From positions 1-40,158 of the forward strand of contig DASVYU010000021.1 in NCBI GenBank assembly GCA_036391995.1: a stretch of DNA of 40,158 bases. The letters are read 5' to 3'. Origin of the DNA: Patescibacteria group bacterium (GTDB lineage Bacteria; Patescibacteriota; Minisyncoccia; Moranbacterales; GWC2-37-73). Below are positions 2,896-21,469 of the stretch, piece after piece (within the stretch, counting starts at the first letter, position 1; each line of letters starts with the position of its first letter). Both the position numbers and the translations under genes were made by a program. The notes beneath the pieces are model-generated. The model did not search any database and had not been told where the DNA came from. It saw only the letters and a program-made list of their open reading frames with translations.

Positions 2896-3786
2896 ATGCC
2901 ACTAATAATCCTGCTGTTCATCATCATTATTGTGTTTATTTTGCCTAACATAAGGATTGTCAAACAGAACACAGTTCTTGTTATTGAGTTTTTGGGAAAA
3001 TACAAGAGAATCATGAGCGCGGGGCTTAATGTGAAAATTCCGCTCTTGGAAAGAGTTGCTAACGAAGTTTCTCTCCGCCAGCAGAATTTTTCAATCGGCG
3101 GCAAATATCCTTCCGCAGACAAAGTTATCGTGGATGTGGCTACCAACCTCATCTATTCTGTTAATCCGACCGAAGAAGGCGTGAAACGCTTTACTTATGT
3201 GTTGCTGGATCCCAAGCAATCCATTGGCGCCATCATTGAAAACTCACTTCGAACATACATTGCCAAGGAAACGCACGAAGGAATCTTGGAGAAAAAAGAA
3301 GAACTGGCCTTGCACATCAAGAGCGATCTGGACAAGCAATTCGCCGAATGGGGTATGCTCATCAGCAGCTTCCAGATCACTAATGTGAATTTCCCATTGG
3401 CCATTACGGACGCCATGTCTGAAGTCGTGGCTTCCCAGCAGCTAAGGAAGGCAGCGGAGAACAAAGGCGAAGCCATCAAAATCCAAGCCATCAAGGAAGC
3501 AGAAGCGGAAAAAGAAAGAAAAAGATTGCAAGGAGAAGGAATTGCGCTGGAACGTGAAGCCATTGCTGAGGGTCTCAAGAAATCCATTGAGACTGTACAG
3601 CAGGTTACCAATCAATCTTCCAGTGAGATTATGGCGATTCTGAGTCTCACTCAATATCTCGATACTTTGAAAGGCGTCGGTTCAAGTGAGAATTCCAAAG
3701 TCATTTTCATGGATACCAACATCCAGAAAACAGGAGATCTCATGCAGCAATTGGTTTCATCTTTGGAGGCTAATAAGCAAAATTAA
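2896..3786 (+). CDS. SPFH/band-7 (stomatin/HflC-like) membrane protein
   Basis: N-terminal TM segment, an SPFH core (VIEFLGKYKRIMSAGLNVKIPLLERV...KVIVDVATNLIYSV...ITNVNFPLAITDAMSEVVASQQLRKAAE) and a coiled-coil tail. Confidence 0.8.
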   Translation: MPLIILLFIIIIVFILPNIRIVKQNTVLVIEFLGKYKRIMSAGLNVKIPLLERVANEVSLRQQNFSIGGKYPSADKVIVDVATNLIYSVNPTEEGVKRFTYVLLDPKQSIGAIIENSLRTYIAKETHEGILEKKEELALHIKSDLDKQFAEWGMLISSFQITNVNFPLAITDAMSEVVASQQLRKAAENKGEAIKIQAIKEAEAEKERKRLQGEGIALEREAIAEGLKKSIETVQQVTNQSSSEIMAILSLTQYLDTLKGVGSSENSKVIFMDTNIQKTGDLMQQLVSSLEANKQN

Positions 3787-3799
3787 TTTTTTTTAAAAA

Positions 3800-4675
3800 A
3801 TGCGAATGCGTAAAATTATTTTGTTTGTTGTGATATTTATAATAATGACTGTGGGCGCAGACAAGTCTAGTGCGTATTATTACGGTTCGCAAGGTTATAG
3901 TTCTACATGGTATCCGGGCGGAATAGGTAGTGGTCTGGATTCTCCTCAGTACACACATTCTTACGGTAGTTCATATTGGAATGCGGCCAATGATCCTACC
4001 TGTGTTTATCATTACTGTTCAAACCCTGGAGAAGATGAACAATACAAAAATGATCAGATCAAATATTATACTGAAAAAGTTACCACTTTTTGTTCTGTCA
4101 CCGGGGATCAGAAAAAATGTGACAAATATTGTGCAAGTTTGAAATCTTATAGTGGCAAAAGTGCGCTTTGTGGAGATGTCATCAAAAAAACATCTCCTGA
4201 CAAAAATGTTGATGCGAACAATGTTTCAACTGAAAAACAGGACAGTGAATCAAAAAAATCGGAAGATGCAAAAAAAGCAGAAGAGGCGAGAAATGCAGAG
4301 ATTGCGCAAAAAGAAAATGATGCGAAAACGGAAGTGCAAAACATGACACAGGAAGGTTCTGATTCAAATGTTCAAGTCACAGATGCGATAAATTCTTTAA
4401 ATAGAACTGGTGCTATTAGAAAGTTTTTTCTGGGCGTTGATATGTCTAAAATTGATAAATTGAAGGAAAGTTTTAGAAAAAACAAAGAAATAATACAACA
4501 GTTAGAATCTGTTTCACAACAAGAAGTTGCAAGTAATAATAGTGAAATAATGAATTCCGTTCAGCAGCAAATTGACGAGCTCAATAAAAGAAATATTTTG
4601 ATAGAAAATGCAATAAATGATAATGAGCTAAAAGTGGGCTTTATTTATTGGTTGAAAGGAATTTTTAGGAAATAA
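3800..4675 (+). CDS. Secreted hypothetical protein: signal peptide, an 8-Cys N-domain, a K/E-rich linker and a coiled-coil C-terminus
   Basis: MRMRKIILFVVIFIIMTVGA signal peptide, then a Cys-rich region (CVYHYCSNPG...FCSVTGDQKKCDKYCASL...ALCGD), then charged, coiled-coil sequence. No recognisable family. Confidence 0.5.
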   Translation: MRMRKIILFVVIFIIMTVGADKSSAYYYGSQGYSSTWYPGGIGSGLDSPQYTHSYGSSYWNAANDPTCVYHYCSNPGEDEQYKNDQIKYYTEKVTTFCSVTGDQKKCDKYCASLKSYSGKSALCGDVIKKTSPDKNVDANNVSTEKQDSESKKSEDAKKAEEARNAEIAQKENDAKTEVQNMTQEGSDSNVQVTDAINSLNRTGAIRKFFLGVDMSKIDKLKESFRKNKEIIQQLESVSQQEVASNNSEIMNSVQQQIDELNKRNILIENAINDNELKVGFIYWLKGIFRK

Positions 4676-4694
4676 TTATTTTTAAAATAAAAAA

Positions 4695-5537
4695 ATGGAA
4701 GAACAGTTTATTCAGCAGGCTGGGGAAAGAAATGGAAACAATAGAATTTTTAAGAGGTTTTTTGAAATCTTCAAGCCTGGTTTTTTAGCTGAAAATTTAG
4801 ACACGATAGACTCTGGCAAGACTTGGAAATTTTGGTTTTTGAGCAACACTTTAGTTGCAATAGTTTTGACAATTATAATAGGATATACCATAAACAAAGG
4901 CATTGATGAAACTGCCAAAGAATTCCTTTTGAAATATCCTAATGCGAAAATATTTGTCAGTGGTGGAAAATTAAGCACTGAGGGCATAGACGAACCAATA
5001 TTTGAAAAATCAGACGATGGATCTGTGTTTGTTTTGGATACGAAAAATCAGAAATACGATGAAACTGTCCTTAGTGATTACAAAAAAGGCGTTTTTATCT
5101 CTTCTGACAAGATTTACAACAAAAAAAGCTCGATAGAAACGCAACAGTATGATATTTCAAAAATAAACAGGAATTTTTCTTTTACTCAAAAAGATCTCCA
5201 ATCAAAAGTTTGGATCTTGAAAGTATTTTTTATAGGCGTAGGCATATTTTTCGGATGGATTTATTTGAATGGTCTTAGATTGATCAGTGCTTTCTGGTGG
5301 GCTTTTTGGTTCTGGCTTCTTGCTGTTATCATGAAAATAGAAGGGGTTGGTTACAAGAATATATATTTTGCCGTGCTTAACTTTTATATCATTCCTCTGG
5401 TAATTTCGCTAGTATTGACGCTGTTTGGTTTGAATGTTGCATTTTTGACAACAATAATATTTTCAATCTTGTTTGTTGTAAATTTCTTGTTTATGAAAAA
5501 AAATCAAAAACAAAAAGAGGTTGTTATTAAAGAGTAA
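4695..5537 (+). CDS. Polytopic membrane protein, hypothetical
   Basis: One TM segment after about 50 aa, a soluble loop of about 120 aa, then 4-5 TM segments (WILKVFFIGVGIFFGWIYL...WWAFWFWLLAVIM...). No family could be assigned with confidence. Confidence 0.5.
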   Translation: MEEQFIQQAGERNGNNRIFKRFFEIFKPGFLAENLDTIDSGKTWKFWFLSNTLVAIVLTIIIGYTINKGIDETAKEFLLKYPNAKIFVSGGKLSTEGIDEPIFEKSDDGSVFVLDTKNQKYDETVLSDYKKGVFISSDKIYNKKSSIETQQYDISKINRNFSFTQKDLQSKVWILKVFFIGVGIFFGWIYLNGLRLISAFWWAFWFWLLAVIMKIEGVGYKNIYFAVLNFYIIPLVISLVLTLFGLNVAFLTTIIFSILFVVNFLFMKKNQKQKEVVIKE

Positions 5538-5611
5538 AATGGGGCGTAAAGAAGTTTTTATTTTATCTTTAAATTAGTTACAATTAATTTATAAATTTTT
5601 AAAACAATAAA

Positions 5612-6646
5612 ATGGAAGAAGGAAATATGGCAAATCCATTCGGAGCGGAGAATGCTTCAGAGGCGCAAACAAGCAGCGAGCAAAAACCTGAGCAAATCGT
5701 GGCGCCGGTTTCACAGGCTGCTGAAGTAAAGTATGCTGGTTTTTGGATTAGGTTGTTAGCTACTATTATAGATTTATTTCTTCCCGGAATTGTTGGAGTT
5801 ATTTTGGGATTTGTGGTTTTGTATATTTCACCAAAAAGTACTGGCAGTATTTATTTGACTATTACAAAGCTTATCATTATATGGGTTTACTATATTTGGA
5901 TGACTAACAAATATCAGGCAACGTTAGGCAAGATGATATTTGGATTAGGGGTTCAAAATAATGAGGGGAAAAAAGTTACTTTGGGGAAAATAGTGCTCAG
6001 GGAAACTATAGGGAAAATTCTTTCATGGATAACTCTTTCAATTGGTTTCATAATGGCTGGATTCACGAGGAGAAAGCAGGCTTTGCATGACAAAATAGCA
6101 GGTACAGTAGTTGTATATAAAGATAGCGGATTCCAGTCTTATTCCGGGCTGGTTTTGGGAGGATTTATTTTGGGAATATTTTCTTTTATTCCAGGTCTCG
6201 GTTTGTTTATTGGAGTTTTGGCTATTATATTTAGCGCAATTGCTTTTTTGGATGCAAAAAAGAATAAAAAACCCGGTAGGCGCATTGCAATAGCTGGAAT
6301 AATTCTTGGAATATTGGGAATAATGTTTACTATAGCACTTTATTCTTCATTGTATTATTTTGGATTTAAGGCTAAATCTGGCCCATTTACTGATATTAAA
6401 ATAGAAACAACAAAAACTATTTTGCAAAATACAGCAGGCTCCTTGGAGCTTTATAAAAAGGAACATGGAAACTATCCTGCTTCCATAAAGGATTTGCAAT
6501 CTGATAACAAAAGCGTTTTTGGAGAAGATTTTTATCAACAGCCACTATATTACAAAGTTTCTGGCGATGGACAATCATACGAGTTAAGAAGTATTGGTCC
6601 AGATGGGCAATATGGAACAGTGGATGATATTATTTTTGGCAAGTAA
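5612..6646 (+). CDS. Fusion protein: RDD-family membrane domain + DUF4190-like TM hairpins + C-terminal type II secretion pseudopilin (GspG-like) globular domain
   Basis: RDD-like N-terminus (YAGFWIRLLATIIDLFLPGIVGVILG). DUF4190-like segments (GLVLGGFILGIFSF...GRRIAIAGIILGILGIMF). The C-terminus matches the GspG C-domain pattern (LELYKKEHGNYPASIKDLQS...YELRSIGPDGQYGTVDDIIF) but has no prepilin leader. The start may be ATG 5627. Confidence 0.6.
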   Translation: MEEGNMANPFGAENASEAQTSSEQKPEQIVAPVSQAAEVKYAGFWIRLLATIIDLFLPGIVGVILGFVVLYISPKSTGSIYLTITKLIIIWVYYIWMTNKYQATLGKMIFGLGVQNNEGKKVTLGKIVLRETIGKILSWITLSIGFIMAGFTRRKQALHDKIAGTVVVYKDSGFQSYSGLVLGGFILGIFSFIPGLGLFIGVLAIIFSAIAFLDAKKNKKPGRRIAIAGIILGILGIMFTIALYSSLYYFGFKAKSGPFTDIKIETTKTILQNTAGSLELYKKEHGNYPASIKDLQSDNKSVFGEDFYQQPLYYKVSGDGQSYELRSIGPDGQYGTVDDIIFGK

Positions 6647-6672
6647 TAAGAAAATACAACTTTATAAACATC

Positions 6673-6702
6673 AAAACCGCTTATTGCAGAGCGGTTTTGT
6701 GT
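6673..6702 (+). terminator. Rho-independent terminator, potentially bidirectional
   Basis: AAAACCGC-ttattgcaga-GCGGTTTT hairpin immediately after the 5612 gene and before the convergent RAYT gene. Confidence 0.5.
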
Positions 6703-7262
6703 TATATGAAGATATTTTCAATGTTGTTTCTGTCACGTTCCCACATTTTGGGATTTGTCTGGATGTATTCGCGGATTTTATTTAACGATTCATCATTACG
6801 GATAATGTGGTCGTAGAAACGTGGTTGCCAGGAGAAATATGTATTGTGCATGGTAGCAAATTTTTTAACGCCCACCTTGAATCCTCTAATAACGGACGCC
6901 AGATTTTCTGATTGTGGTCCAAATTTATTACCATTCACGTGTAGAGACGCAAAATTTTGCGTCTCTACATTTAAATGATTGATGCCATTCCAATTAATTT
7001 TTATAATTCCATGCATGTGGTTTGGCATGATGACAAATTCATCCAAATTTATAAATGGAAAATGGTTTGGAATTTTTTTCCAATATTCTTCTGCAATCTT
7101 TCCAATTTCCGATAGAATAATTTTTCCATCAACAATATCACCGAAAAAATGTTCGCGATCACGCGTACAAATTGTGATGAAATACATTCCATCTTGTGAA
7201 TAATTATATCCTGCCAATCTTGAAGATTTTATTGCGTATTTGTTTTTGAATTTATCATGCAT
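6702..7262 (-). mobile_element. REP-associated tyrosine transposase (RAYT), IS200/IS605-type Y1 HUH transposase
   Basis: HUH motif (MPNHMHGII) and a catalytic Tyr region (WQPRFYDHIIRNDESLNKIREYIQTNP). The N-terminus is typical of RAYTs (RLAGYNYSQDGMYFITICTRDR). The likely start is the ATG at 7262; the ORF tool extended it to 7301. Flanked by REP-like palindromes. Confidence 0.75.
6941..6970. repeat. REP-like 30-bp perfect palindrome, copy A, lying in-frame inside the RAYT CDS
   Basis: tgtagagacgcaaaattttgcgtctctaca, preceded by attcacgtg. It encodes NVETQNFASLHV within the transposase. Confidence 0.8.
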
Positions 7263-7304
7263 AAAAAATAATAAAATCAAAATATATACATATTTTAACA
7301 CAAA

Positions 7305-7336: not shown

Positions 7337-7378
7337 TTCACGTGTGACAGGTAGAGACGCAAAATTTTGCGTCTCTAC
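7337..7378. repeat. REP-like palindrome, copy B, with the same attcacgtg leader
   Basis: attcacgtgtgacag-gtagagacgcaaaattttgcgtctctac. It lies 6 bp from the efp stop codon and could double as the efp terminator hairpin. Confidence 0.8.
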
Positions 7379-7383
7379 AATTA

Positions 7384-7941
7384 TCAGGCGCGGGAAACGT
7401 ACTCTCCTTTTTCCGTGTTGATGATTAACTTGTCTCCTTCGTTGATGAAAAGAGGGGCGCTGACCTTGAGTCCGGTTTCCATGGTCACAACTTTGCCGCC
7501 TGTACCAGCAGTGTCGCCCTTGATTCCTGGAGGAGCTTCCACGACTGTCAGAGTAACTTTGATCGGCAGTTCGATGTTTACTGGATTGCCATTGAAGTTT
7601 AGTACAGTTACTTCGGTGCCTTCCAGAAGATAAAGATAGGCGTCGCCAATCACATCTTTGCTGAAAGTGAACTGCTCATAAGAGCTCATGTCCATGAAGA
7701 CATAACCCTCTGGTTCGTTGTAGAGATATTGAGCTTTGGTTTTGCTCATATCGGCCTCATCTACTTTTTCTGACCCCTGGAAAGTCTTGTCCAACACAGC
7801 TCCAGTCAGCAGGTTTTTGAGCTTGGTACGCAGCACTGCGCCTGCGCGTCCGGTCTTGGAATGCTCATGAGTGAGGACAACATAAGGCTGTCCTTCCCAG
7901 AGAATATTCTTGCCGGATTTGATATCGCTAAGTCCTAGCAT
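7384..7941 (-). CDS. efp: Elongation factor P
   Basis: A full EF-P three-domain sequence (KTGRAGAVLRTKLKNLLTGAVLDKTF...). Confidence 0.9.
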   Translation of the reverse strand: MLGLSDIKSGKNILWEGQPYVVLTHEHSKTGRAGAVLRTKLKNLLTGAVLDKTFQGSEKVDEADMSKTKAQYLYNEPEGYVFMDMSSYEQFTFSKDVIGDAYLYLLEGTEVTVLNFNGNPVNIELPIKVTLTVVEAPPGIKGDTAGTGGKVVTMETGLKVSAPLFINEGDKLIINTEKGEYVSRA

Positions 7942-8042
7942 AGTACTTTTATGTTATGCTAATCCACGAATTTAACACTAATCTGCGAATTACGAATTCG
8001 CAATTAGTGGATTGGCATTTATTTGCGGATTAGTATCTTTGC
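7942..8042. promoter_or_regulatory. Paralogous dyad-symmetric intergenic element E1, upstream of efp
   Basis: Shares a core with 8250-8370 and 8854-8971: atgctaatcNacgaatNNaacactaatctNcgaatt ... aattcgcaNttNgNggattggcatttattNgNggattag. It ends 10-25 nt before the start codon and carries no SD. Confidence 0.6.
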
Positions 8043-8249
8043 TTATTTAACTACAAAAGGTACCAAAGCCATCACGCGAGCGCGCTTGATAGCTTGGGAA
8101 AGCGTTCTTTGGTGCTTCGTGCAGATGCCATGGCGCTTTGGAGGATAGATTTTTCCTTGGCTGTTCATGAAGCGGCGGATGAGGTAAGCATCCTTGTAGT
8201 CGATTTTGTCCATCTTCTGATCACAGAAGTAACAAGTCTTTTTTTCCAT
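8043..8249 (-). CDS. rpsR: 30S ribosomal protein S18
   Basis: The translation (MEKKTCYFCDQKMDKIDYKDAYLIRRFMNSQGKIYPPKRHGICTKHQRTLSQAIKRARVMALVPF) is a full-length S18. Confidence 0.9.
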   Translation of the reverse strand: MEKKTCYFCDQKMDKIDYKDAYLIRRFMNSQGKIYPPKRHGICTKHQRTLSQAIKRARVMALVPFVVK

Positions 8250-8370
8250 AATTCAATGTGATGCTAATCAACGAATGGAACACTAATCTACGAATTGCGA
8301 ATGGATTTCAACAGAATTTATTCGCGATTTGTGGATTGGCATTTATTTGTGGATTCGCATCGTTTATTAT
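8250..8370. promoter_or_regulatory. Paralogous intergenic element E2, upstream of rpsR
   Basis: Same architecture as E1 and E3: two direct ctaatcNacgaat half-sites plus an inverted pair ggattgg/ggattcgca. Confidence 0.6.
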
Positions 8371-8853
8371 TTAAAACGGTACATCCTCGATTCTTACTTC
8401 GTCGGATTCCTCATCCAGATTGATGGTCGGAATCTCTTCTGCTGCTGGAGCTGCAGGTTTGCTAGCAGGCGCTGGAGTCGAGGCTTGTGGGGCAAGGCGA
8501 TTGTAGCTTCCGCTTCCCGCGCCGCTTGGGCGGCTTCCCATTTGCATATTCTCGGCAATTATTTCCGTAGTCCTTCTTTCCACTCCATCTTTGCCAGTGT
8601 AGGCACGTGTCTCTAGGCGTCCTTCGAAATAAGCCTCCTGACCTTTAGTGAGGTATTGGCCGGCTATTTCAGCTAGGCGTCCCCAGATTACGATGTTGTG
8701 GAACTCAGTCTTTTCCTGCTTCTGACCGCTCTTGTCCATCCAGGTGCGTCCGGTGGCTAAACCGACGGTCGCTACCGTCTGTCCTGAAGGAGTGGTGCGG
8801 AGTTCGACGTCACGCGTGAGGCGTCCGATGAGTTGGACTTTGTTCAAATTCAT
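8371..8853 (-). CDS. ssb: Single-stranded DNA-binding protein
   Basis: OB-fold N-domain (MNLNKVQLIGRLTRDVELRTTPSGQTVATVGLATGRTW), a Gly/Pro/Ala-rich linker and an acidic tail ending DEESDEVRIEDVPF. Confidence 0.9.
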   Translation of the reverse strand: MNLNKVQLIGRLTRDVELRTTPSGQTVATVGLATGRTWMDKSGQKQEKTEFHNIVIWGRLAEIAGQYLTKGQEAYFEGRLETRAYTGKDGVERRTTEIIAENMQMGSRPSGAGSGSYNRLAPQASTPAPASKPAAPAAEEIPTINLDEESDEVRIEDVPF

Positions 8854-8971
8854 AGAATTTGTGTGATGCTAATCTACGAATGCAACACTAATCTACGAAT
8901 TGCGAATGGATTCAAGTTTGTTTTATTCGCAATTTGCGGATTGGCATTTATTGGCGGATTAGCATATTTAA
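8854..8971. promoter_or_regulatory. Paralogous intergenic element E3, upstream of ssb
   Basis: gatgctaatctacgaatgcaacactaatctacgaattgcgaatgg ... attcgcaatttgcggattggcatttattggcggattagcata. Confidence 0.6.
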
Positions 8972-9577
8972 TTAGATGTTGAGCAATTCGTCCAGCTGCT
9001 TGTCGATGTCCTTGGACTCGGCTTCTTTCTTGCTCTTTTTTGGAGCTTCTTTCACCTCTTCAACTTTGGTTTCCTCGACTTTTTCTTCTTTGACTTCTTC
9101 CTTAATTTCAGCTATAGGCTTAACTTCCTCTTTGACTGCTTCCTTGGCTTCTGGCTTTGGGGCAGCTTTCTTTTCTGGGCGCTGAGCTTTGACTGGAGCT
9201 TGCTTGGCATTTCCGAGCTCTTGCTCTTTGCGGCGCTGCTTGGCTCCGAGATCTGGCAGATCTTCAGTCTTCACGATCAGGAAGCGGAGCACATCATTGT
9301 TGAGGTTCAGTTTGTTGGTGATGGCTTGGATGCCGAATTCTTTCTCAGCATTCTTTTCGTCAGCCCAATATTCGACCTCAGGAAGTTCGAAACGGCGGGT
9401 GATGTAGGTTCCGCGATTCTGGTGCTTGATTTCATAGGCAAGCTTCCTTTTTTCAACAATCTCTTCTTCGAGTATTGTTGCTCCTTCTTGAGTGAGCATG
9501 GCGCTCACGCTATTGCGGATCGCGTCGAGATTGGCCTCTTGGCGTTCTCCGACGAGATAGAACAGTTCGTACTGCAT
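8972..9577 (-). CDS. rpsF: 30S ribosomal protein S6 with a long K/E/A-rich C-terminal extension
   Basis: The S6 core begins at MQYELFYLVGERQ (ATG at 9577; the ORF tool start at 9592 adds MYNKI). A low-complexity KEEVKEE tail of about 90 aa follows. Confidence 0.85.
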   Translation of the reverse strand: MQYELFYLVGERQEANLDAIRNSVSAMLTQEGATILEEEIVEKRKLAYEIKHQNRGTYITRRFELPEVEYWADEKNAEKEFGIQAITNKLNLNNDVLRFLIVKTEDLPDLGAKQRRKEQELGNAKQAPVKAQRPEKKAAPKPEAKEAVKEEVKPIAEIKEEVKEEKVEETKVEEVKEAPKKSKKEAESKDIDKQLDELLNI

Positions 9578-9598
9578 AATTTTATTATACATTATTTA

Positions 9599-9660
9599 TT
9601 AACGGGTTAACGGGTTAACGCGTTAGGGATTCCAACTCGTGAACTCGTGAACTCGTGAAC
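9599..9660. promoter_or_regulatory. Upstream module, left copy: 3x CCGTTAAC-type tandem octamers and 3x CTCGTGAA tandem octamers; reads toward rpsF
   Basis: ttaacgggttaacgggttaacgcgtta ... aactcgtgaactcgtgaactcgtgaa. The reverse complement is present at 16120-16182. The distance from the GTTAAC repeats to the rpsF ATG is 21 nt. Confidence 0.6.
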
Positions 9661-9735
9661 TGTTGAATAAATAAACCCTCCAATAAAGAAAGCCGCGCCT
9701 TTTGGAGGATTCTTCCGACTTATCCTTTTGTTAAG

Positions 9736-9758
9736 CCCCGAAGGGGTCCCTTCGGGAC
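9736..9758. other. Two adjacent tetraloop-type hairpins in an untranslated region
   Basis: ccccgaagggg followed by gtcccttcgggac, a C(UUCG)G-type loop, between divergent rpsF and the island promoter. Confidence 0.3.
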
Positions 9759-9822
9759 AAAAAAGGCGAGTCAGAATCGGACTTTCTAAATTGTTTAAAT
9801 AGTATACACTATTGACATAATT

Positions 9823-9857
9823 TGTCAAATATGCTAGATTACACAGTTCACATTTTT
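9823..9857 (+). promoter_or_regulatory. Candidate promoter with an overlapping palindromic operator, for the flotillin island
   Basis: TTGACAtaattTGTCAA (an inverted repeat over the -35), a 17-nt spacer, then TAGATT. Further inverted repeats downstream: gagtatttttt/aaaaaatactc and ctggaa-N6-ttccag. Confidence 0.4.
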
Positions 9858-10019
9858 GATCTTTAGAGTATTTTTTGTAGTGCGAAAAAATATAAAAAAT
9901 ACTCTGGAAGTCAATTTCCAGGCTAGCAATCTTTACAACTGAATTAATGAAATGAAAGGAGGGAAAAGGATTTGAGATTGTAAAATCCAAGAGAGGACTG
10001 AGTGGAAGTTAAACATCAA

Positions 10020-11981
10020 CGACAAGAAAAGGAGAGTAAGATGAAAGAAATGATTCCGCATTTGCCCTCATGGATCCCGTACCTGCTGTTTCTTCTGCCC
10101 GTTGCCTTCTGCATCGTCTTCTACCGTCTCGTGATCCGGATCGGCGGAGTGGTCATCATTCCGGAAGATTCCATAGGGATCGTGAACAAGAAGTTTGTGC
10201 TCTGGGGGACAAACAAGAACTTGCCCGACGGCAAGATCATCGCCCTCAATGGCGAGGCTGGCTGGCAGGCCGACGCGCTTGCTCCCGGTGTGCATTACCG
10301 GAAGTGGCCATGGCAGTACGAGATCAAGATTGAGAAGATGTTCGTCGTGCCGGCTGGTAATATCGCTACTGTGTATGCCAGAGACGGCGTCGCGATCGAG
10401 GGAGGCCGAGTTCTCGGCAGGAAGGTTAACTGCGACACATTCCAGGATGCCAGGAAGTTTCTGGTAAACGGAGGGGAGCGCGGTCAGCAGATCGCCTTCA
10501 TTCCCCAGGGAACATACCGTATCAACACCGCTCTGTTTGAAGTAAAGACGGAAAAGGTCTACGAAGTTCCGAGCGGGAAAGTCGGCGTTATCACGACCAA
10601 GGATGGCAAAGAACTGCCCAAGGACGAGATCGCCGGTGAGAAAGTAGATGGGCACGATTCCTACCAGAACGGCCAGGCTTTTATGGACAATGGCGGCTGG
10701 AAAGGGCGTCAGGCGCAGGTCATTCTTGCCGGACGGTATTTTATCAACCCGTTCTTTGCCGAAGTGGAACTGGTCGACATGACGGAGGTTCAGATCGCGC
10801 ATGTAGGCGTCGTCATCCAGCTCTACGGCAAGGCTGGTACCGATGTTTCCGGTGATGATTTCCAGCATGCCAGCCTGGTTGGACAGGGAGAGAAGGGCGT
10901 CTGGAGGGACCCACTTGACCCTGGTCTCTATGCGATCAACCCCTGTACCCACAAGGTTGTCCAGGTGCCCACGCAAAACATCGTCCTTAACTGGGCCGAT
11001 GATACCTTTGAATCGCACAGGTATGACGAAAAACTGAGCTCGATCACTGTCCGTTCCATGGACGGTTTCAGCTTCACGCTGAACGTCAGCCAGATCATCC
11101 ACATTTCCCGTAACTATGCTTCCTACGTGATTGCGCAGTTCGGCAGCGTGGAGAGTCTGGTCAACAACGTGTTGTCGCCGCTGATCGGAAACTACTTTCG
11201 AAACAGTGCGCAGAACAGCAATGTGATCTCTTTCCTGAGCGAGCGCAACCAGCGCCAGGATCAGGCCAAGGACAAGATCCAGGAAGTTTTGACCAAGCAT
11301 CATGTCACTTCGGTCGACACGCTGATTGGCGACATTAATCCGCCGGAAGAACTGCTCGAACCGCTCAAACAGAAACAGATCGCCGAGCAGCAGAAGCTCA
11401 CCTTCGCTGTCCAGCAGGAAGCTCAGGTGGAACGGCAAAAACTGGAACAATCTAGAGCCATGGCTGAAACCCAGGCGAGCGTCGTTTCTTCGGAGCGCCA
11501 GGTGGCGATCAAAAAGTTCGGTGCTGAAGCTGTCCAGGAAGAAGCCAAGGGTACGGCCGGCGCCAAGACGATCAACGCCAAGGCGGACGCTGAGGTGCTG
11601 AAAGTCGTCGGTATGGCCGAGGCTGAGAAAATCAAGGCTGTCGGTGGTGCCGAAGCGGATGTTATCAAGCAGAAGATTGATTCCATGGAAGCCGGTAACT
11701 ATGCCCTGGTTCTCGTGGCGGAACATCTGGCTAAAGCTGGGGTGCCCTTGGTACCGCAGATCACGGCTGGTGGAAGTGGTGGTGCTGAAGGCGGGCTGGT
11801 CAATGTCCTCCTCGGAACGCTGCTTCACGACAACCTGAAAAAGGCGGCTGTAACACCAGCTGCGGCTCCGCAGGCTGCCCATCTCGAAGCCGTAGCAGCT
11901 GCTGAACCGGCTGCAGCACCCGCTGCCTCGGCGTCCGAAGAGAGGAATGAGCCGGCTGCAGGCGAATCTGTCGAGGAATAA
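10020..11981 (+). CDS. Flotillin-like SPFH protein (YqiK/FloT family), in a high-GC island
   Basis: N-terminal TM (IPYLLFLLPVAFCIVFY), an SPFH core, and a flotillin-type C-terminal AEAE region (VVGMAEAEKIKAVGGAEADVIKQKIDSMEAGNYALVLVAEHLAKAGVPLVPQI). Strong SD (aaaaggagag) before ATG 10020. Local GC about 57%. The ORF tool start at 10002 is 6 codons longer. Confidence 0.75.
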   Translation, partial: RQEKESKMKEMIPHLPSWIPYLLFLLPVAFCIVFYRLVIRIGGVVIIPEDSIGIVNKKFVLWGTNKNLPDGKIIALNGEAGWQADALAPGVHYRKWPWQYEIKIEKMFVVPAGNIATVYARDGVAIEGGRVLGRKVNCDTFQDARKFLVNGGERGQQIAFIPQGTYRINTALFEVKTEKVYEVPSGKVGVITTKDGKELPKDEIAGEKVDGHDSYQNGQAFMDNGGWKGRQAQVILAGRYFINPFFAEVELVDMTEVQIAHVGVVIQLYGKAGTDVSGDDFQHASLVGQGEKGVWRDPLDPGLYAINPCTHKVVQVPTQNIVLNWADDTFESHRYDEKLSSITVRSMDGFSFTLNVSQIIHISRNYASYVIAQFGSVESLVNNVLSPLIGNYFRNSAQNSNVISFLSERNQRQDQAKDKIQEVLTKHHVTSVDTLIGDINPPEELLEPLKQKQIAEQQKLTFAVQQEAQVERQKLEQSRAMAETQASVVSSERQVAIKKFGAEAVQEEAKGTAGAKTINAKADAEVLKVVGMAEAEKIKAVGGAEADVIKQKIDSMEAGNYALVLVAEHLAKAGVPLVPQITAGGSGGAEGGLVNVLLGTLLHDNLKKAAVTPAAAPQAAHLEAVAAAEPAAAPAASASEERNEPAAGESVEE

Positions 11982-11997
11982 CGAACCGCAAGGTTCA

Positions 11998-12031
11998 CTG
12001 TCGAGGGGTGGAGCGGATTCGCTTCACCCCT
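11998..12031 (+). other. Compound hairpin between the flotillin gene and the small gene
   Basis: GAGGGGTG-gagcggattcgctt-CACCCCTC; an 8-bp stem enclosing an inner AGCG/CGCT hairpin. Confidence 0.4.
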
Positions 12032-12056
12032 CATTTCATAGGAGGAAAATCTCGCA

Positions 12057-12508
12057 TGAAAAGAGCTCCATTGTTTTGCAAGGGCGTAATCATCGTCTGT
12101 GAAGACTTCCGACTTCATCAGCGCCCTGATGGAAGCAATGTCGTGGCGGAGCTCGTCAAAAAGCTTGGCTACGATTGCGACATCATTACGCGTGGGGGAG
12201 GGATTCTTGATCTCGTTTCTCCTGAAGACGTTGGAGCGGGATTCGACAGATCAATGATGCGTGACATCAAGGTGGCGGAAATTCTTCATCAGGCCGAGGA
12301 AATCACGATCATCGGTCATGAGGACTGCCGCGCCTACGGTTACCGGCATATGCCCACAATGCAGGCTGAACTGAATCTGATTCATGCTGACATGCGTCGT
12401 GGCGCCAGCGTGCTGAAACGTATCTTTCCGAAAGCGAACGTATCTCTCCAGGTTGCAAGACTTCTGGCGGGATCTGTCGACAAGTTTGAACTTACGAAAC
12501 TTGCGTAA
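12057..12508 (+). CDS. Small hypothetical protein with beta-carbonic-anhydrase-like (Cab-type) C-x-D-x-R ... H-x-x-C motifs
   Basis: VIIVCEDFRL ... ITRGGG ... IIGHEDCRAYG. The spacing roughly resembles small beta-class carbonic anhydrases, but the assignment is tentative. SD ggagga before ATG 12057. High GC. Confidence 0.3.
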
Positions 12509-12530
12509 GAATCGACATGCAATTGCAATG

Positions 12531-12561
12531 CCCTACTGAGCAATCGGTAGGGTGTTTTTTT
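12531..12561 (+). terminator. Rho-independent terminator
   Basis: CCCTAC-tgagcaatcg-GTAGGG followed by a T7 run. Confidence 0.6.
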
Positions 12562-12659
12562 ATTCAATAAATATTGACAGATCATTTGATTTATGATACG
12601 TTTTTAAGTTCGCAGTTCGTTGTTATTATCAAAAAACACTCCAAAGGGGGAGCGACCAA

Positions 12660-13781
12660 ATGGCAAACTTGATCAAAGTGTGGTGGAAAAGAAGTTTTTT
12701 CAGAAGAATGTGGCGGGAAACATATGGACATCACTCTTCTGGAAACAATGAATATGTCCAGATGGGCAGCACTAAAGTTGAGAGATCAAGGGAATTGGAG
12801 GGAGAATCTCAGATAAAGTTGTCTGAGCCTCCACAGTCATCTCCCAAACCGATGACTGAATCGGAATTCAGATGTCTGCTCGGAGGAATCAGTGACTTCA
12901 AAGAGCTGAAAAGCCAGTATGACAGCTGTCCTTCACAATTTGATCCGATTATTGGCGAGAGACTGAAAAAAATTCTTTCCAACGTCACGGATATTGAAGA
13001 GTTGGAAGATGCGAGTCAGCTGGACTTCGGCGAATTCAACGAAATTATTGATGAACGATACGAGAAACTCCTCCCTGCTTTTCTTAGGGATGCATCGCTT
13101 GAAGACATCGAAGCGCGTTATGAATATTGCCCTGATCAGGAGCGTTTCGGCGAGCAGATGAAAAAGCGCTATGCAGAACTTCTGGATGAAATTGATTCAT
13201 TTGATGATCTCGAAGAACGCAGAAAGGCATGCCCGGAAGATTTCGCTGAGCTTTTTCGCGTCCCGTATCAGAAGCTTCTCTACGCGATTAGTTCGGTCGA
13301 AGAGCTTGATGATTATTTCGACAATTGTCCGGATGAGTTTGAAGATTTCTATCTAGGACCATATGACAAGTTGCTTGCTGAATTAGAAACGCTTGAAGAT
13401 CTGCAGGGGCTGTATAGAGAGTCCCATGAACACTTCGGCCCATTGTATGGCTACCATTACAAGAGGCTTCTAGAAAAGGAAGAATCTCTTGAAGGCCTTG
13501 AAGGAACATACAATGATTGCAAGGAGGATTTTGATGGACTCATAATCGTTCGCTATTCGCAGCTCCTTTGGAAAGTCGATGGCATAGATGAACTAAGTAA
13601 TCGACTTGATGAATGTCCTGCGGCGTTCAATGGTCTGATATATGCCCGTTGTCGCGAGCTTGTATTCCAGAAAATGCCGAGAATGTCGGCGAGCGAGCGC
13701 GATTCGCTGTGTGAAGACATTGCTGATGATTTCAAACCGATTGCCGTCGCTTGCCGCGATCTGTTGAATTTAGAGAAATAA
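12660..13781 (+). CDS. Novel tandem-repeat protein: 8 repeats of about 33 aa
   Basis: Repeats such as SLEDIEARYEYCPDQERFGEQMKKRYAELLDEI / DSFDDLEERRKACPEDFAELFRVPYQKLLYAI / SSVEELDDYFDNCPDEFEDFYLGPYDKLLAEL give the consensus s-h-E-E/D-L-x3-Y-x2-C-P-x2-F-x7-Y-x-K-L-L. The N-terminus is basic and aromatic (MANLIKVWWKRSFFRRMW). SD aaggggga upstream. Confidence 0.6.
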   Translation: MANLIKVWWKRSFFRRMWRETYGHHSSGNNEYVQMGSTKVERSRELEGESQIKLSEPPQSSPKPMTESEFRCLLGGISDFKELKSQYDSCPSQFDPIIGERLKKILSNVTDIEELEDASQLDFGEFNEIIDERYEKLLPAFLRDASLEDIEARYEYCPDQERFGEQMKKRYAELLDEIDSFDDLEERRKACPEDFAELFRVPYQKLLYAISSVEELDDYFDNCPDEFEDFYLGPYDKLLAELETLEDLQGLYRESHEHFGPLYGYHYKRLLEKEESLEGLEGTYNDCKEDFDGLIIVRYSQLLWKVDGIDELSNRLDECPAAFNGLIYARCRELVFQKMPRMSASERDSLCEDIADDFKPIAVACRDLLNLEK

Positions 13782-13802
13782 TATTTTCCGAAATCGGAAG
13801 CA

Positions 13803-13833
13803 GCCCTACTGGGAAAATAGTAGGGCTTTTTTA
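13803..13833 (+). terminator. Rho-independent terminator
   Basis: AGCCCTAC-tgggaaaata-GTAGGGCT followed by T6; the same CCCTAC/GTAGGG stem family as the terminator at 12531. Confidence 0.65.
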
Positions 13834-13987
13834 TGGACAATTCGGTTGTAGAGTTGTAATATATATAACTAAGTCTAAGTTTTAAATTTTAAGTTTGAAA
13901 TGAGTTTTAAATGACTAAATGTTTTAAAACTTAGGCATTTAGGATTGAATTAAAATTTAAAAATTAGCCCTTAAAACTTGTGTAGTC

Positions 13988-15946
13988 ATGGATTTTGAGA
14001 TTTCTAGCAAATATAAGCCTGCCGGCGATCAGCCGCAGGCCATTGAATTGCTCACATACGGGCTGGAACATCAGCAGAAGTTTCAGACGCTTTTGGGTGT
14101 GACTGGATCGGGCAAGACTTTCACGATTGCCAATGTGATCGAGAATGTGCAGAAGCCCACTTTGGTGATCGCGCCCAACAAGACTTTGGCAGCGCAGCTG
14201 GTGCAAGAATTTCGCACCTTCTTTCCCAAGAACGCTGTGGAATATTTCGTGTCCTATTACGACTATTATCAGCCGGAAGCCTACATCGCTTCGACTGATA
14301 CATATATCGAAAAGGAAGTACAGATCAATGATGAGATCGACAGATTGCGTCATGCTGCAACCTCCGCTTTGCTTTCCAGGCGCGATGTGATCATCGTTGC
14401 ATCGGTTTCCTGCATCTACGGCTTGGGAAGCCCGGACTATTATCGTGAAGGGACTGTTTCGGTTGTTGTCGGAGAAAAAGCTTCACGCGAAGCGATCATG
14501 AAAGGCATGATAGATATGCAATATCATCGCAGTGAGGTTCTGGAGCGCGGCAAGTTCCGCGTGATCGGCGACACGATCGAAGTGATCACGCCTGGCAGAG
14601 AGATCGTGTCACGCATCGAATTGGAAGATGGCTTGGTCAAAAGAATCCAAGAATATGATTTCCTGACGGGCGAAAAACTGGGAGATCTCAAGCAGACGCT
14701 TATTTATCCAGCCAAACATTTTGTGGTGCCAGAACCTGTCATGCAGGCAGCACTGGAAGAGATTGAACAGGAAGCCAAGGAAAGAGTGGAATATTTCAAA
14801 GCCAAAGGCAAGCTTCTGGAAGCGGAGAGGATTTCTCGCAGAACCAAACAGGATCTGGAGATGATGCGCGAGATCGGCTATTGCAATGGCGTGGAGAATT
14901 ATTCGCGCTATCTGACAGGCCGTAATGAAGGCGAGCCGCCATACACTTTGGTGGATTATTTCCCGGAAGATTTTCTTTTGGTGATCGATGAATCGCACGT
15001 GACCATCCCGCAGCTTAGTGCCATGTATAACGGGGATCGTGCCAGAAAAGAAGCGCTGATCGAAAACGGCTTCCGTCTGCCGAGCGCTTTTGACAATCGC
15101 CCGCTCAAATTTCCGGAATTCGAATCGCACATCAACCAGCTCATTTTCACTTCGGCTACTCCTGGAGCATATGAGAAGCAGAATTCTTCCCAGATGGTGG
15201 AACAGATCATCCGCCCGACGGGGCTCATCGACCCGGAGCTCATCATCAGGCCAGCCAAGGGGCAGGTCAAAGATGTGCTGCCTGAAATAGAGAAGGTCAT
15301 CGAGAAAAAGGAACGCGTCTTGATCACGACGCTCACTAAGAAGATGGCGGAGGATCTGGCGGAATTCTTGAAGGAACATGGCATCAAATGCGAGTATCTG
15401 CATTCCAGTGTGGACACTCTGGATCGCATCAGGATATTGGAAGGCCTCAGGCGAGGGGATTTCGACGTGCTGGTGGGAGTCAATCTTCTGCGCGAAGGCT
15501 TGGATCTGCCGGAAGTTTCCCTGGTAGCCATTCTGGATGCGGACAAGGAAGGATTCTTGCGCAGCGAGACTTCGCTCATCCAGACCATAGGCCGCGCCGC
15601 GCGTAACGTGAACGGCAGAGTGCTTCTCTATGCTGACAACATGACCGGCTCCATGCAGAGGGCGATCGATGAGACCAATCGCCGCCGGGAGAAGCAGCTG
15701 GCCTACAACAAGAAGCACGGCATCACCCCTAAGACTATCCAGAAGAACATCAAATCCATCGTGGATCACGAGATCAACCCCCAGGTACCGACTGATTTTT
15801 CACAAGTGGAATCCCTAGAGGACATTGCTGGCTACATCAAACAGAAAGAGAAAGAGATGAAAGACGCGGCCCGTGCCCTGGAGTTCGAGAAAGCGGCTCT
15901 TATCCGCGATGAGATTTCCCAGCTCAGGAAATTGCAAATAAAATAG
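13988..15946 (+). CDS. uvrB: Excinuclease ABC subunit B
   Basis: Helicase motifs (GVTGSGKTF; DESH), a beta-hairpin region and a C-terminal UVR domain ([18 protein letters not shown]). Confidence 0.95.
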
Positions 15947-21061: not shown

Positions 21062-21469
21062 TCAGGATACTGACTCTAAAAATGTCTTCAGAGAATGATA
21101 GATGACTCTCAGGAAGACCACATTCTCTCCCGGAAGTTTTTTCTCCAGCGTGGCATTTCTGAAGAACTCTTCCAGTGTCACTTTATCGGGAATCTGCTGG
21201 AGTTCTTCGAATTTCATGCCATTGGAGTTGGCAATTTGCGGTATGTATTGGCAGAGCATGTTATCCAGGCGGTCTTTGAGCCTGGAGTCTATGTTCCTGT
21301 TCCAGATGGCAGTCTGGATCTGCTGCAGAAGCTGCTTCACCATCCTGTCGCTGCCCACGAGCCCGACAATAGACGGACAATACTTGCCGAAGCTGACTTG
21401 CTCGAGCATGGGCAAAGCCCTTCGAAAATCATTTCTGCTGGCTGGGCGGTTCATTTTTGCGGCCATCAT
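21062..21469 (-). CDS. Hypothetical protein, 135 aa: gene B of a higher-GC two-gene insert
   Basis: Own SD (aaaggagaag) before ATG ATG. No recognisable domain. GC near 50%. Confidence 0.45.
   Translation of the reverse strand: MMAAKMNRPASRNDFRRALPMLEQVSFGKYCPSIVGLVGSDRMVKQLLQQIQTAIWNRNIDSRLKDRLDNMLCQYIPQIANSNGMKFEELQQIPDKVTLEEFFRNATLEKKLPGENVVFLRVIYHSLKTFLESVS

Follow-up and report, generated by a model that had tools for sequence, protein, structure and literature searches.

We analysed a 40,158-nucleotide stretch of contig DASVYU010000021.1 (assembly GCA_036391995.1), hereafter the window. It is a Candidatus Moraniibacteriota contig, from the candidate phyla radiation (CPR): its UvrB is 83–86% identical to those of Candidatus Moraniibacteriota metagenome-assembled genomes. 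Between rpsF and uvrB it carries an inserted block of about 4 kb (9829–13833, plus strand) with three genes, which encode a long SPFH-domain protein of 646 amino acids (aa) (SPFH646, 10041–11981), a mini beta-carbonic-anhydrase-like protein of 150 aa (CA150, 12056–12508) and an alpha-solenoid repeat protein (REP373, 12660–13781), all on the plus strand. The block consists of two cassettes: one combines a promoter, the long SPFH gene, the gene of the mini beta-carbonic-anhydrase-like protein (CA-like gene) and a terminator, and the other the gene of the alpha-solenoid (REP gene) and its own terminator.

The gene order recA ... efp-rpsR-ssb-rpsF / uvrB-trx-uvrA was kept in 12 out of 12 close relatives, and the SPFH, CA-like and REP proteins gave no tblastn match in any of them. 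Between rpsF and uvrB lie 4395 bp in the window versus 275–1430 bp in these 12 relatives. As the three genes are missing from a locus that the relatives conserve, the block is a lineage-specific insertion. A first-pass annotation, made from the sequence alone, had proposed that the three genes were acquired, and this holds: orthologues at the same locus were found in 0 of the 12 relatives.

The block is bounded by the -35 boxes of two native divergent promoters (minus-strand TTGACA in the window and TTGCCA or a close variant in relatives; uvrB TGGACA), which lie about 13 nt apart in one relative (L017) versus 4 kb in the window. The same rpsF-uvrB gap holds different cargo in relatives, such as a cold-shock-like gene or unknown open reading frames (ORFs) preceded by a Shine-Dalgarno (SD) site. 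In another relative (L023) the gap measures 3.1 kb and contains a membrane protein and a probable M23 peptidase, recognised by its sequence motifs. Because relatives hold other cargo at the same spot, we consider the insertion site a variable hotspot. No integrase or transposase was present among the listed ORFs of the block, and no target-site duplication, terminal inverted repeats or flanking direct or inverted repeats were found around the island. A tRNA scan of the window returned none, thus there is no tRNA-linked integration site. The island likely entered by recombination between homologous flanks.

The block was also recovered in public assemblies. Logan assembly L015 (SRR10159350) is 100% identical to the window over 7351–15900 and spans both junctions, and Logan assembly L016, from a separate run (SRR10159353), is 100% identical over 9935–13916, that is, across the block interior. 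Since two separate assemblies match the window exactly, the block is not an assembly artefact.

The three proteins and their recurring neighbourhoods

In SPFH646, an N-terminal transmembrane helix is followed by two beta modules of about 75 aa, the SPFH domain, a long coiled coil and an Ala/Pro-rich tail. Pfam Band_7 (PF01145) matched residues 280–478 with 106.3 bits (cut-off 23.6). The structure model combines the SPFH alpha/beta fold with a long helix (residues 436–548), as in cage-forming members, and the modelled fold matches those of QmcA, HflC, stomatin and flotillin. The first-pass annotation had named this protein a flotillin, which proved too specific: membership of the SPFH superfamily holds, but we found no Pfam Flot (PF15975) match at E <= 0.1 and no NCBIfam match of any kind, including FloT. 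About 240 residues, occupied by the two beta modules, lie between the transmembrane helix and the SPFH domain, unlike the anchor-adjacent SPFH domain of flotillins, and no NfeD-like ORF was present within 9600–14000. On these three grounds we rejected a canonical flotillin identity. The family profile did give a weak match to the coiled coil of flotillin-2 (E = 2e-4). For the three island proteins together, PHROGs gave a sole match (phrog_200 'lipoprotein', to the SPFH protein), and PADLOC-DB 2.0 and NCBIfam gave none for any of them.

SPFH scaffolds are universal, and NfeD is their canonical partner in bacteria. The window resembles the SPFH-NfeD operons (E. coli QmcA-YbbJ and YqiK-YqiJ; FloA/FloT-NfeD of Bacillus and Staphylococcus) in having an anchored Band 7 protein, whose C-terminal part is a long coiled coil, and few adjoining partner genes. 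It differs from them in lacking NfeD and in having two additional beta modules; its candidate partners are an alpha-solenoid and a mini beta-carbonic-anhydrase-like protein.

CA150 carries the CxDxR and HxxC motifs (C15-E-D17-F-R19 and H88-E-D-C91) which, in beta-carbonic anhydrases (beta-CAs), hold the zinc ligands (Cys-His-Cys) and the Asp-Arg catalytic dyad. We retrieved just five homologues, and residues C15, D17, R19, H88 and C91 were invariant. The Pfam scores of CA150 lie under the cut-offs (24.5 versus 30 bits for Pro_CA_2; 14.9 versus 25.7 bits for Pro_CA), and its close homologues carry precomputed PF20393 (Pro_CA_2) matches. The CA150 profile, searched against the PDB, matched small beta-CAs (3las with E = 0.007, then 1ylk and 1g5c), and the two motifs align to CMDSR and HTDCG of 3las. 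CA150 is similar to the Cab-type beta-CAs (M. thermoautotrophicum Cab, 1g5c; M. tuberculosis Rv1284, 1ylk; 3las) in its motifs and its length (150 versus 164–172 aa). Unlike them and PF20393, it scores under both Pfam cut-offs, and it is a putative enzyme. The profile matches to the small beta-CA structures are weak. Our literature search returned nothing on PF20393, and we know of no described link between beta-CA and SPFH genes.

In the model of REP373 (pLDDT 81), an N-terminal helix is followed by a disordered linker and then by about eight helical hairpins, each 32–33 aa long and most with a conserved Cys-Pro turn. The N-terminal helix is conserved at W18, E20, Y22 and G23, and the protein has no signal peptide. 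No match was obtained in Pfam, PADLOC, PHROGs or NCBIfam, and a fold search against the PDB returned generic solenoids only, with no assignment to TPR, Sel1, HEAT, ankyrin or another known helical repeat. We detected three homologues among 5.8 billion proteins and, with the family profile, 14 matches among 1.84 billion representatives; none was found in IMG/VR, and the JGI metagenome contigs contained two loci only. On the model and these searches, REP is a very rare new alpha-solenoid family, in line with the novel repeat protein that had been proposed from the sequence.

We then compared the neighbourhoods of these genes. REP adjoins an SPFH gene in 4 out of the 5 loci with flanks (the window, L004, L006 and L097), with two types of SPFH protein, and the flanking genes vary among these loci. 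The window has the order SPFH646-CA150-REP373, and in L004 SPFH636 is followed by REP373, between different flanks. In L006 (10001–13287) the order is MurJ, REP362, SPFH634 and LepA. In L097 (5467–10183) it is MurJ, a 297-aa ORF, REP471, an NfeD-like protein of 198 aa, a Flot-type SPFH570, a CA-like protein of 174 aa and LepA. Thus, in L097, REP adjoins a canonical pair of the SPFH-NfeD type, and the SPFH protein is unrelated in sequence to SPFH646. The LepA proteins of L006 and L097 fall in the same 90% cluster, and both loci have the common MurJ..LepA frame with REP inside it and different SPFH types. By these gene comparisons, L006 and L097 are close relatives: REP stayed at its locus in both, and the SPFH gene paired with it was exchanged. 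A CA-like gene lies alongside an SPFH gene at three loci: the window, contigs of ERZ1426727 (SPFH640, with CA162 36 bp on) and L097, whose CA-like protein matches the CA150 family profile with 86% probability and E = 5e-6. The synteny search therefore bears out the proposed pairing of the SPFH gene with two non-canonical partners, with no NfeD gene in the window.

Composition and origin of the block

The GC content, in windows of 500 nt, was 0.388 at 9501–10000; it then reached 0.542, 0.550, 0.530, 0.592 and 0.516 in the successive windows across 10001–12500, and was 0.406 at 12501–13000. Elsewhere in the window it was mostly about 0.42–0.50. Thus, the GC jump reported at 10.0–12.5 kb is a real rise (to 0.52–0.59), but the block is not a uniform high-GC island: the SPFH gene alone is compositionally foreign. 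As a reference we used 22 native genes, with a GC content at third codon positions (GC3) of 0.509 +/- 0.059; the highest annotated core gene was uvrB, with a codon-usage z of 7.5. The SPFH gene had a GC3 of 0.665 and the top codon-usage z of the window (18.6), the CA-like gene was marginal (GC3 0.536; z = 3.0), and the REP gene was host-like (GC 0.445; GC3 0.447; z = 1.5). Amino-acid composition gives part of the GC excess of the SPFH gene, whose GC at first codon positions is 0.63. In the homologous SPFH genes of L006 and of the phage contig L001, GC3 equals that of the host and the overall GC is still above it. Because the SPFH gene keeps a foreign codon usage and the REP and CA-like genes are host-like (marginally so for the latter), the block is, by composition, a mosaic rather than a single recent import from a phylum of high GC.

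A 604-aa ORF on the minus strand (10068–11882) had been pointed out as spurious. We confirmed its presence and judge it spurious as well, because it is antisense to the strongly supported SPFH frame with its Pfam Band_7 domain. The SPFH copy of L004 has a similar antisense ORF of 345 aa.

All three island genes are preceded by SD sites: AAGGAG before the ATG at 10041, AGGAGG before the ATG at 12056 and AGGGGGAG before the ATG at 12660. A comparable site was found in 1 out of 27 other genes of the window (Fisher p = 0.001), so the island genes are SD-led and the native genes mostly are not, as the first-pass annotation had stated. Most SPFH and REP genes of the SD-poor hosts L004, L006 and L097 likewise have an SD site. 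The single exception among the other genes of the window encodes 135 aa (21062–21469, minus strand) between uvrA and uvrC; it has a strong SD site (AAAGGAGAAG), a GC3 of 0.64 and no Pfam match, and may be another acquired gene.

The best matches of SPFH646 with taxon names belonged to Betaproteobacteria and Gammaproteobacteria (among them Niveibacterium, Ralstonia, Uliginosibacterium and Steroidobacteraceae), at 49–57% identity (54–59% over the trimmed alignment). The closest sequences, at 61–62%, were P0019 on the 54-kb contig L004, P0007 on contigs of about 3 kb, and P0005 on a 58-kb phage-like contig (L001), which has a Peptidase_S77 gene and a GC content of 0.26 and looks like a phage. The SPFH sequences of the window, L004, L006, P0007 and L001 have in common a deletion of 73 columns, equivalent to one beta module fewer than in 116 out of 116 other top matches, which are Proteobacteria wherever named. 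The two-module bipartition was recovered in 50 out of 50 neighbour-joining bootstraps. Viral SPFH copies are of the two-module form too, at 42–58% identity: IMG/VR contained 109 long-SPFH relatives, many on contigs of 100–675 kb, and the uncultured phage LR756502.1 (642 kb) has an SPFH copy at 47% identity.

The alignment thus places the SPFH gene in a two-module clade whose members come from phage contigs and from contigs that are SD-poor and probably CPR. Its source is most likely a pool shared by phages and CPR-type (SD-poor) contigs, and a proteobacterium is unlikely to have been the direct donor. Of the proposed transfer from another phylum, the insertion itself and the proteobacterial affinity of the best named matches stand, but the common deletion groups the gene with SD-poor and phage contigs. 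In P. aeruginosa, most accessory SPFH genes are reported to have been acquired horizontally (PMC13086221).

The long 'YqiK-like' SPFH proteins of Proteobacteria (670–699 aa; Niveibacterium, Ralstonia, Uliginosibacterium) belong to the same family and have the same domain order, with the above 49–57% identity extending over more than 80% of the length, but they have three N-terminal beta modules where SPFH646 has two. The whole long-SPFH family numbers more than 7,800 members, besides the viral copies. In Niveibacterium the gene is solitary, and in Ralstonia it is surrounded by short genes, most of them unannotated; neither neighbourhood has REP or CA-like genes. One CagX (type IV secretion) match was found in the Ralstonia neighbourhood, which may be a mobile element. 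Large and huge phages (IMG/VR; LR756502.1) have SPFH genes of the two-module form, like SPFH646, but the neighbours of these genes are phage metabolic genes, with no REP or CA-like gene. In the IMG/VR loci (L102–L181), by eye from representative sequences, SPFH genes often lie near NadV-like, ribose-phosphate pyrophosphokinase (Prs-like) and nucleoside deoxyribosyltransferase genes; the NadV-like (nicotinamide phosphoribosyltransferase) gene cluster was near viral SPFH genes at 26 loci.

A candidate SPFH module and its alternatives

The reading that we favour, and hold to be moderately probable, is that the locus is an accessory SPFH module: a mosaic block, placed in a promoter-bounded hotspot, in which REP and possibly the CA-like protein act as partners of the SPFH protein. 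By analogy with HflK/C, QmcA-YbbJ, flotillin, erlin and prohibitin, SPFH646 would be anchored by its N-terminal helix and would form an oligomeric ring or cage at the cytoplasmic side of the membrane, and its two additional beta modules would heighten the wall. REP would be a peripheral adaptor or client whose N-terminal helix docks on the membrane or the cage and whose solenoid presents a binding surface. We propose docking on SPFH assemblies because REP keeps an SPFH neighbour through a swap of SPFH type. CA150, with its putative zinc site, might be an accessory enzyme or a client of the SPFH assembly.

Several points weigh against this reading. The confidence of the SPFH646 model is moderate (pLDDT 62), and the membrane topology was taken from the positive-inside rule alone. 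No SPFH gene lies within 6 kb of a more distant REP relative (L098, 36% identity), and two more distant CA-like relatives (P0127 and P0128) do not adjoin SPFH genes. The functional link of the three proteins comes from about five loci, some of them with common ancestry, and the CPR taxonomy of L004, L006 and L097 was deduced from the style of their gene starts. Finally, the two cassettes differ in codon usage and have separate terminators; they could be independent cargo.

In one alternative view, the three genes are unrelated cargo that accumulated in the hotspot, and their neighbourhood would be coincidental. We find this rather unlikely, even though relatives do hold different cargo at the hotspot, each cassette has its own terminator and its own codon usage, and the L098, P0127 and P0128 genes are found without SPFH neighbours. 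Coincidence fits poorly with REP lying beside SPFH in 4 out of 5 flanked loci, in three arrangements and with two unrelated SPFH subfamilies, and with a CA-like gene beside an SPFH gene at three loci; chance adjacency would be about 1%, assuming that a small genome has about 1–3 SPFH genes. It is unlikely, too, that the block is a phage-derived module, retained because it alters the cell membrane during infection, that serves in membrane protection, superinfection exclusion or anti-phage defence. Two-module SPFH genes are indeed abundant on viral contigs (109 in IMG/VR, L001 and the 642-kb phage), the position is a variable hotspot and the SD sites are like those of phage genes. None of the three proteins has a PADLOC match, however, REP has no IMG/VR relative, and the neighbours of viral SPFH genes are metabolic (NadV-like and Prs-like, by eye) and not REP or CA-like. 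Our literature search returned no work on SPFH proteins in Patescibacteria, nor any that connects this protein class with anti-phage defence.

A bolder version of the module, which we regard as improbable, would make SPFH646 a membrane-anchored, vault-like cage with REP as its dedicated cargo adaptor and the CA-like protein as an enclosed or tethered client; this would be a hitherto undescribed SPFH membrane nanocompartment system common to CPR bacteria and their large phages. In the model, the beta-module wall of SPFH646 resembles the major vault protein (MVP) at the fold level only, which is a lead and not a sign of membership. SPFH646 differs from MVP in having just two modules, in being membrane-anchored and in showing no sequence similarity: we found no Pfam Vault match, and the beta-module profile gave no MVP or other meaningful match among PDB sequences. 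As for where the block came from, a recent direct transfer of the whole of it from a high-GC proteobacterium would account for the named best SPFH matches in Betaproteobacteria and Gammaproteobacteria and for the high GC3 and outlying codon usage of the SPFH gene, but it is very unlikely: the identity is just 49–57% (54–59% trimmed), the third beta module of the 116 other top matches is missing while the gene groups with phage and SD-poor contigs, and none of the REP (3) or CA-like (5) matches was attributed to Proteobacteria, the composition of both genes being native. An assembly or binning chimera, with contaminant DNA joined to a CPR contig, might be suspected from the abrupt GC change and the proteobacterial best SPFH matches. 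We consider it extremely unlikely, as L015 reproduces both junctions and L016 the block interior at 100% identity, the block is placed exactly between two native promoters and the codon usage of REP is host-like.

Few SPFH partners or clients are, to our knowledge, known in bacteria. REP, which remains beside SPFH genes despite the change of type, is a concrete candidate for a new one. The locus is also a clean case of a streamlined CPR genome that has gained genes, at a hotspot defined by two promoters: the newcomers retain SD sites, which most native genes lack, and large phages appear to share their gene pool. The scope is narrow, at a handful of loci.

Promoters, leader RNA and other features of the window

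The left boundary of the island is a native minus-strand promoter (9801–9828; TTGACA-N16-TATACT, 11 out of 12 consensus positions), outside the island, of a leader or small RNA upstream of rpsF. It aligns with TTGCCA-N17-TATAAT, or a close variant, in 15 out of 15 relatives aligned. A plus-strand promoter-like site (9812–9840; TTGACA-N17-TAGATT with TG extension, 10 out of 12 consensus positions in the scan) has its TTGACA within the spacer of this native promoter, and the island side contributes the extended -10 (TGcTAGATT, with its end at 9840). The SPFH and CA-like genes are probably transcribed from this site, which is a hybrid that straddles the island junction. The first-pass annotation had given the island its own promoter with an operator palindrome, TTGACA (9812–9817) and, after five bases, TGTCAA (9823–9828). 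Both the palindrome and the promoter-like site are present, but we rejected the operator: TGTCAA is the -35 box of the conserved native minus-strand promoter. The palindrome consists of two overlapping divergent -35 boxes and is therefore explained without an operator.

The SPFH gene has a 5' leader of about 200 nt, which contains an AT-rich inverted repeat (9856–9914, plus strand; arms 9856–9879 and 9891–9914, 79% complementary). Between the SPFH and CA-like genes lies an intercistronic 13-bp hairpin (12003–12032, plus strand), an inverted repeat that is 92% complementary and has no T-run. The first cassette ends in an intrinsic terminator (12527–12563, plus strand) with a CCCTAC...GTAGGG stem (12527–12556) and a T-run, and the second in another (13802–13833, plus strand) with a AGCCCTAC...GTAGGGCT stem (13802–13827) and a T-run, at the right end of the island. 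Both terminators and their CCCTAC/GTAGGG stem had been noted before: the CCCTAC-N-GTAGGG pattern occurs at these two sites and nowhere else in the window, versus 0 expected, and the terminators have 39 nt in common at 72% identity. A candidate REP promoter (12574–12602, plus strand; TTGACA-N17-TACGTT with TG extension) is weak and was read by eye; the consensus scan did not report it. The right boundary, outside the island, is the native uvrB promoter (13834–13862, plus strand; TGGACA-N17-TAATAT, from the scan), and a TGGACA...TAGTAT/TAATAT site precedes uvrB in most relatives inspected.

The minus-strand RNA upstream of rpsF (9667–9795 in the window) is conserved at 16 Moranbacteria loci, namely the window and the 15 relatives aligned. 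It is ordered as promoter, invariant AGAAAGUCC box, stem, terminator hairpin with U-run, variable spacer and rpsF. Across these loci the stem has compensatory changes at 8 out of 13 pairs, and the window copy has an additional GC hairpin of 23 nt in its apical loop. The RNA may act either as a small RNA or as a leader of the attenuator type for the rpsF-ssb-rpsR operon. Rfam, run on the whole window at gathering thresholds and on 9560–10060 at E-value thresholds, gave no family for the SPFH leader or for this RNA; the best match, Phe_leader (23 bits), was judged to be chance.

The window encodes a second SPFH protein, HflK/stomatin-like and of 296 aa (2896–3786). It lies in the gap between recA and efp, which measures 4.7 kb in the window versus about 0.5–2 kb in relatives, and 2896–7301 appears to be a second insertion. 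This gap includes a low-GC block (3800–7300, GC 0.32–0.36). It encodes an unknown protein of 291 aa, one DUF1189 and one RDD/DUF4190 protein, and an ORF of 199 aa that weakly matches an IS200-like Y1 transposase. The codon-usage z of the block genes was 6–14.

Upstream of efp (7942–7966), rpsR (8250–8274) and ssb (8854–8878) there is no SD site, and a GATTAGCAT[C/A]ACA motif lies about 12–17 nt before the ATG. The uvrB gene of relatives begins 8 nt past its -10 box. The native genes without SD sites and this uvrB start suggest that the native style is short-leader or leaderless expression. Two intergenic stretches of 105 nt, 8257–8360 (rpsR-ssb) and 8862–8965 (ssb-rpsF), are 87% identical to each other and form a repeated element within the operon. 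The rpsF and uvrB leaders (9600–9668 and 13863–13987) are filled with short AT-rich tandem and inverted repeats, with TAACGGGT about 2.5 times and GAACTCGT three times. These repeats include imperfect palindromes of the TTTTAAA...TTTAAAA type, and similar low-complexity inserts are present in relatives, among them L018, L026 and L029.

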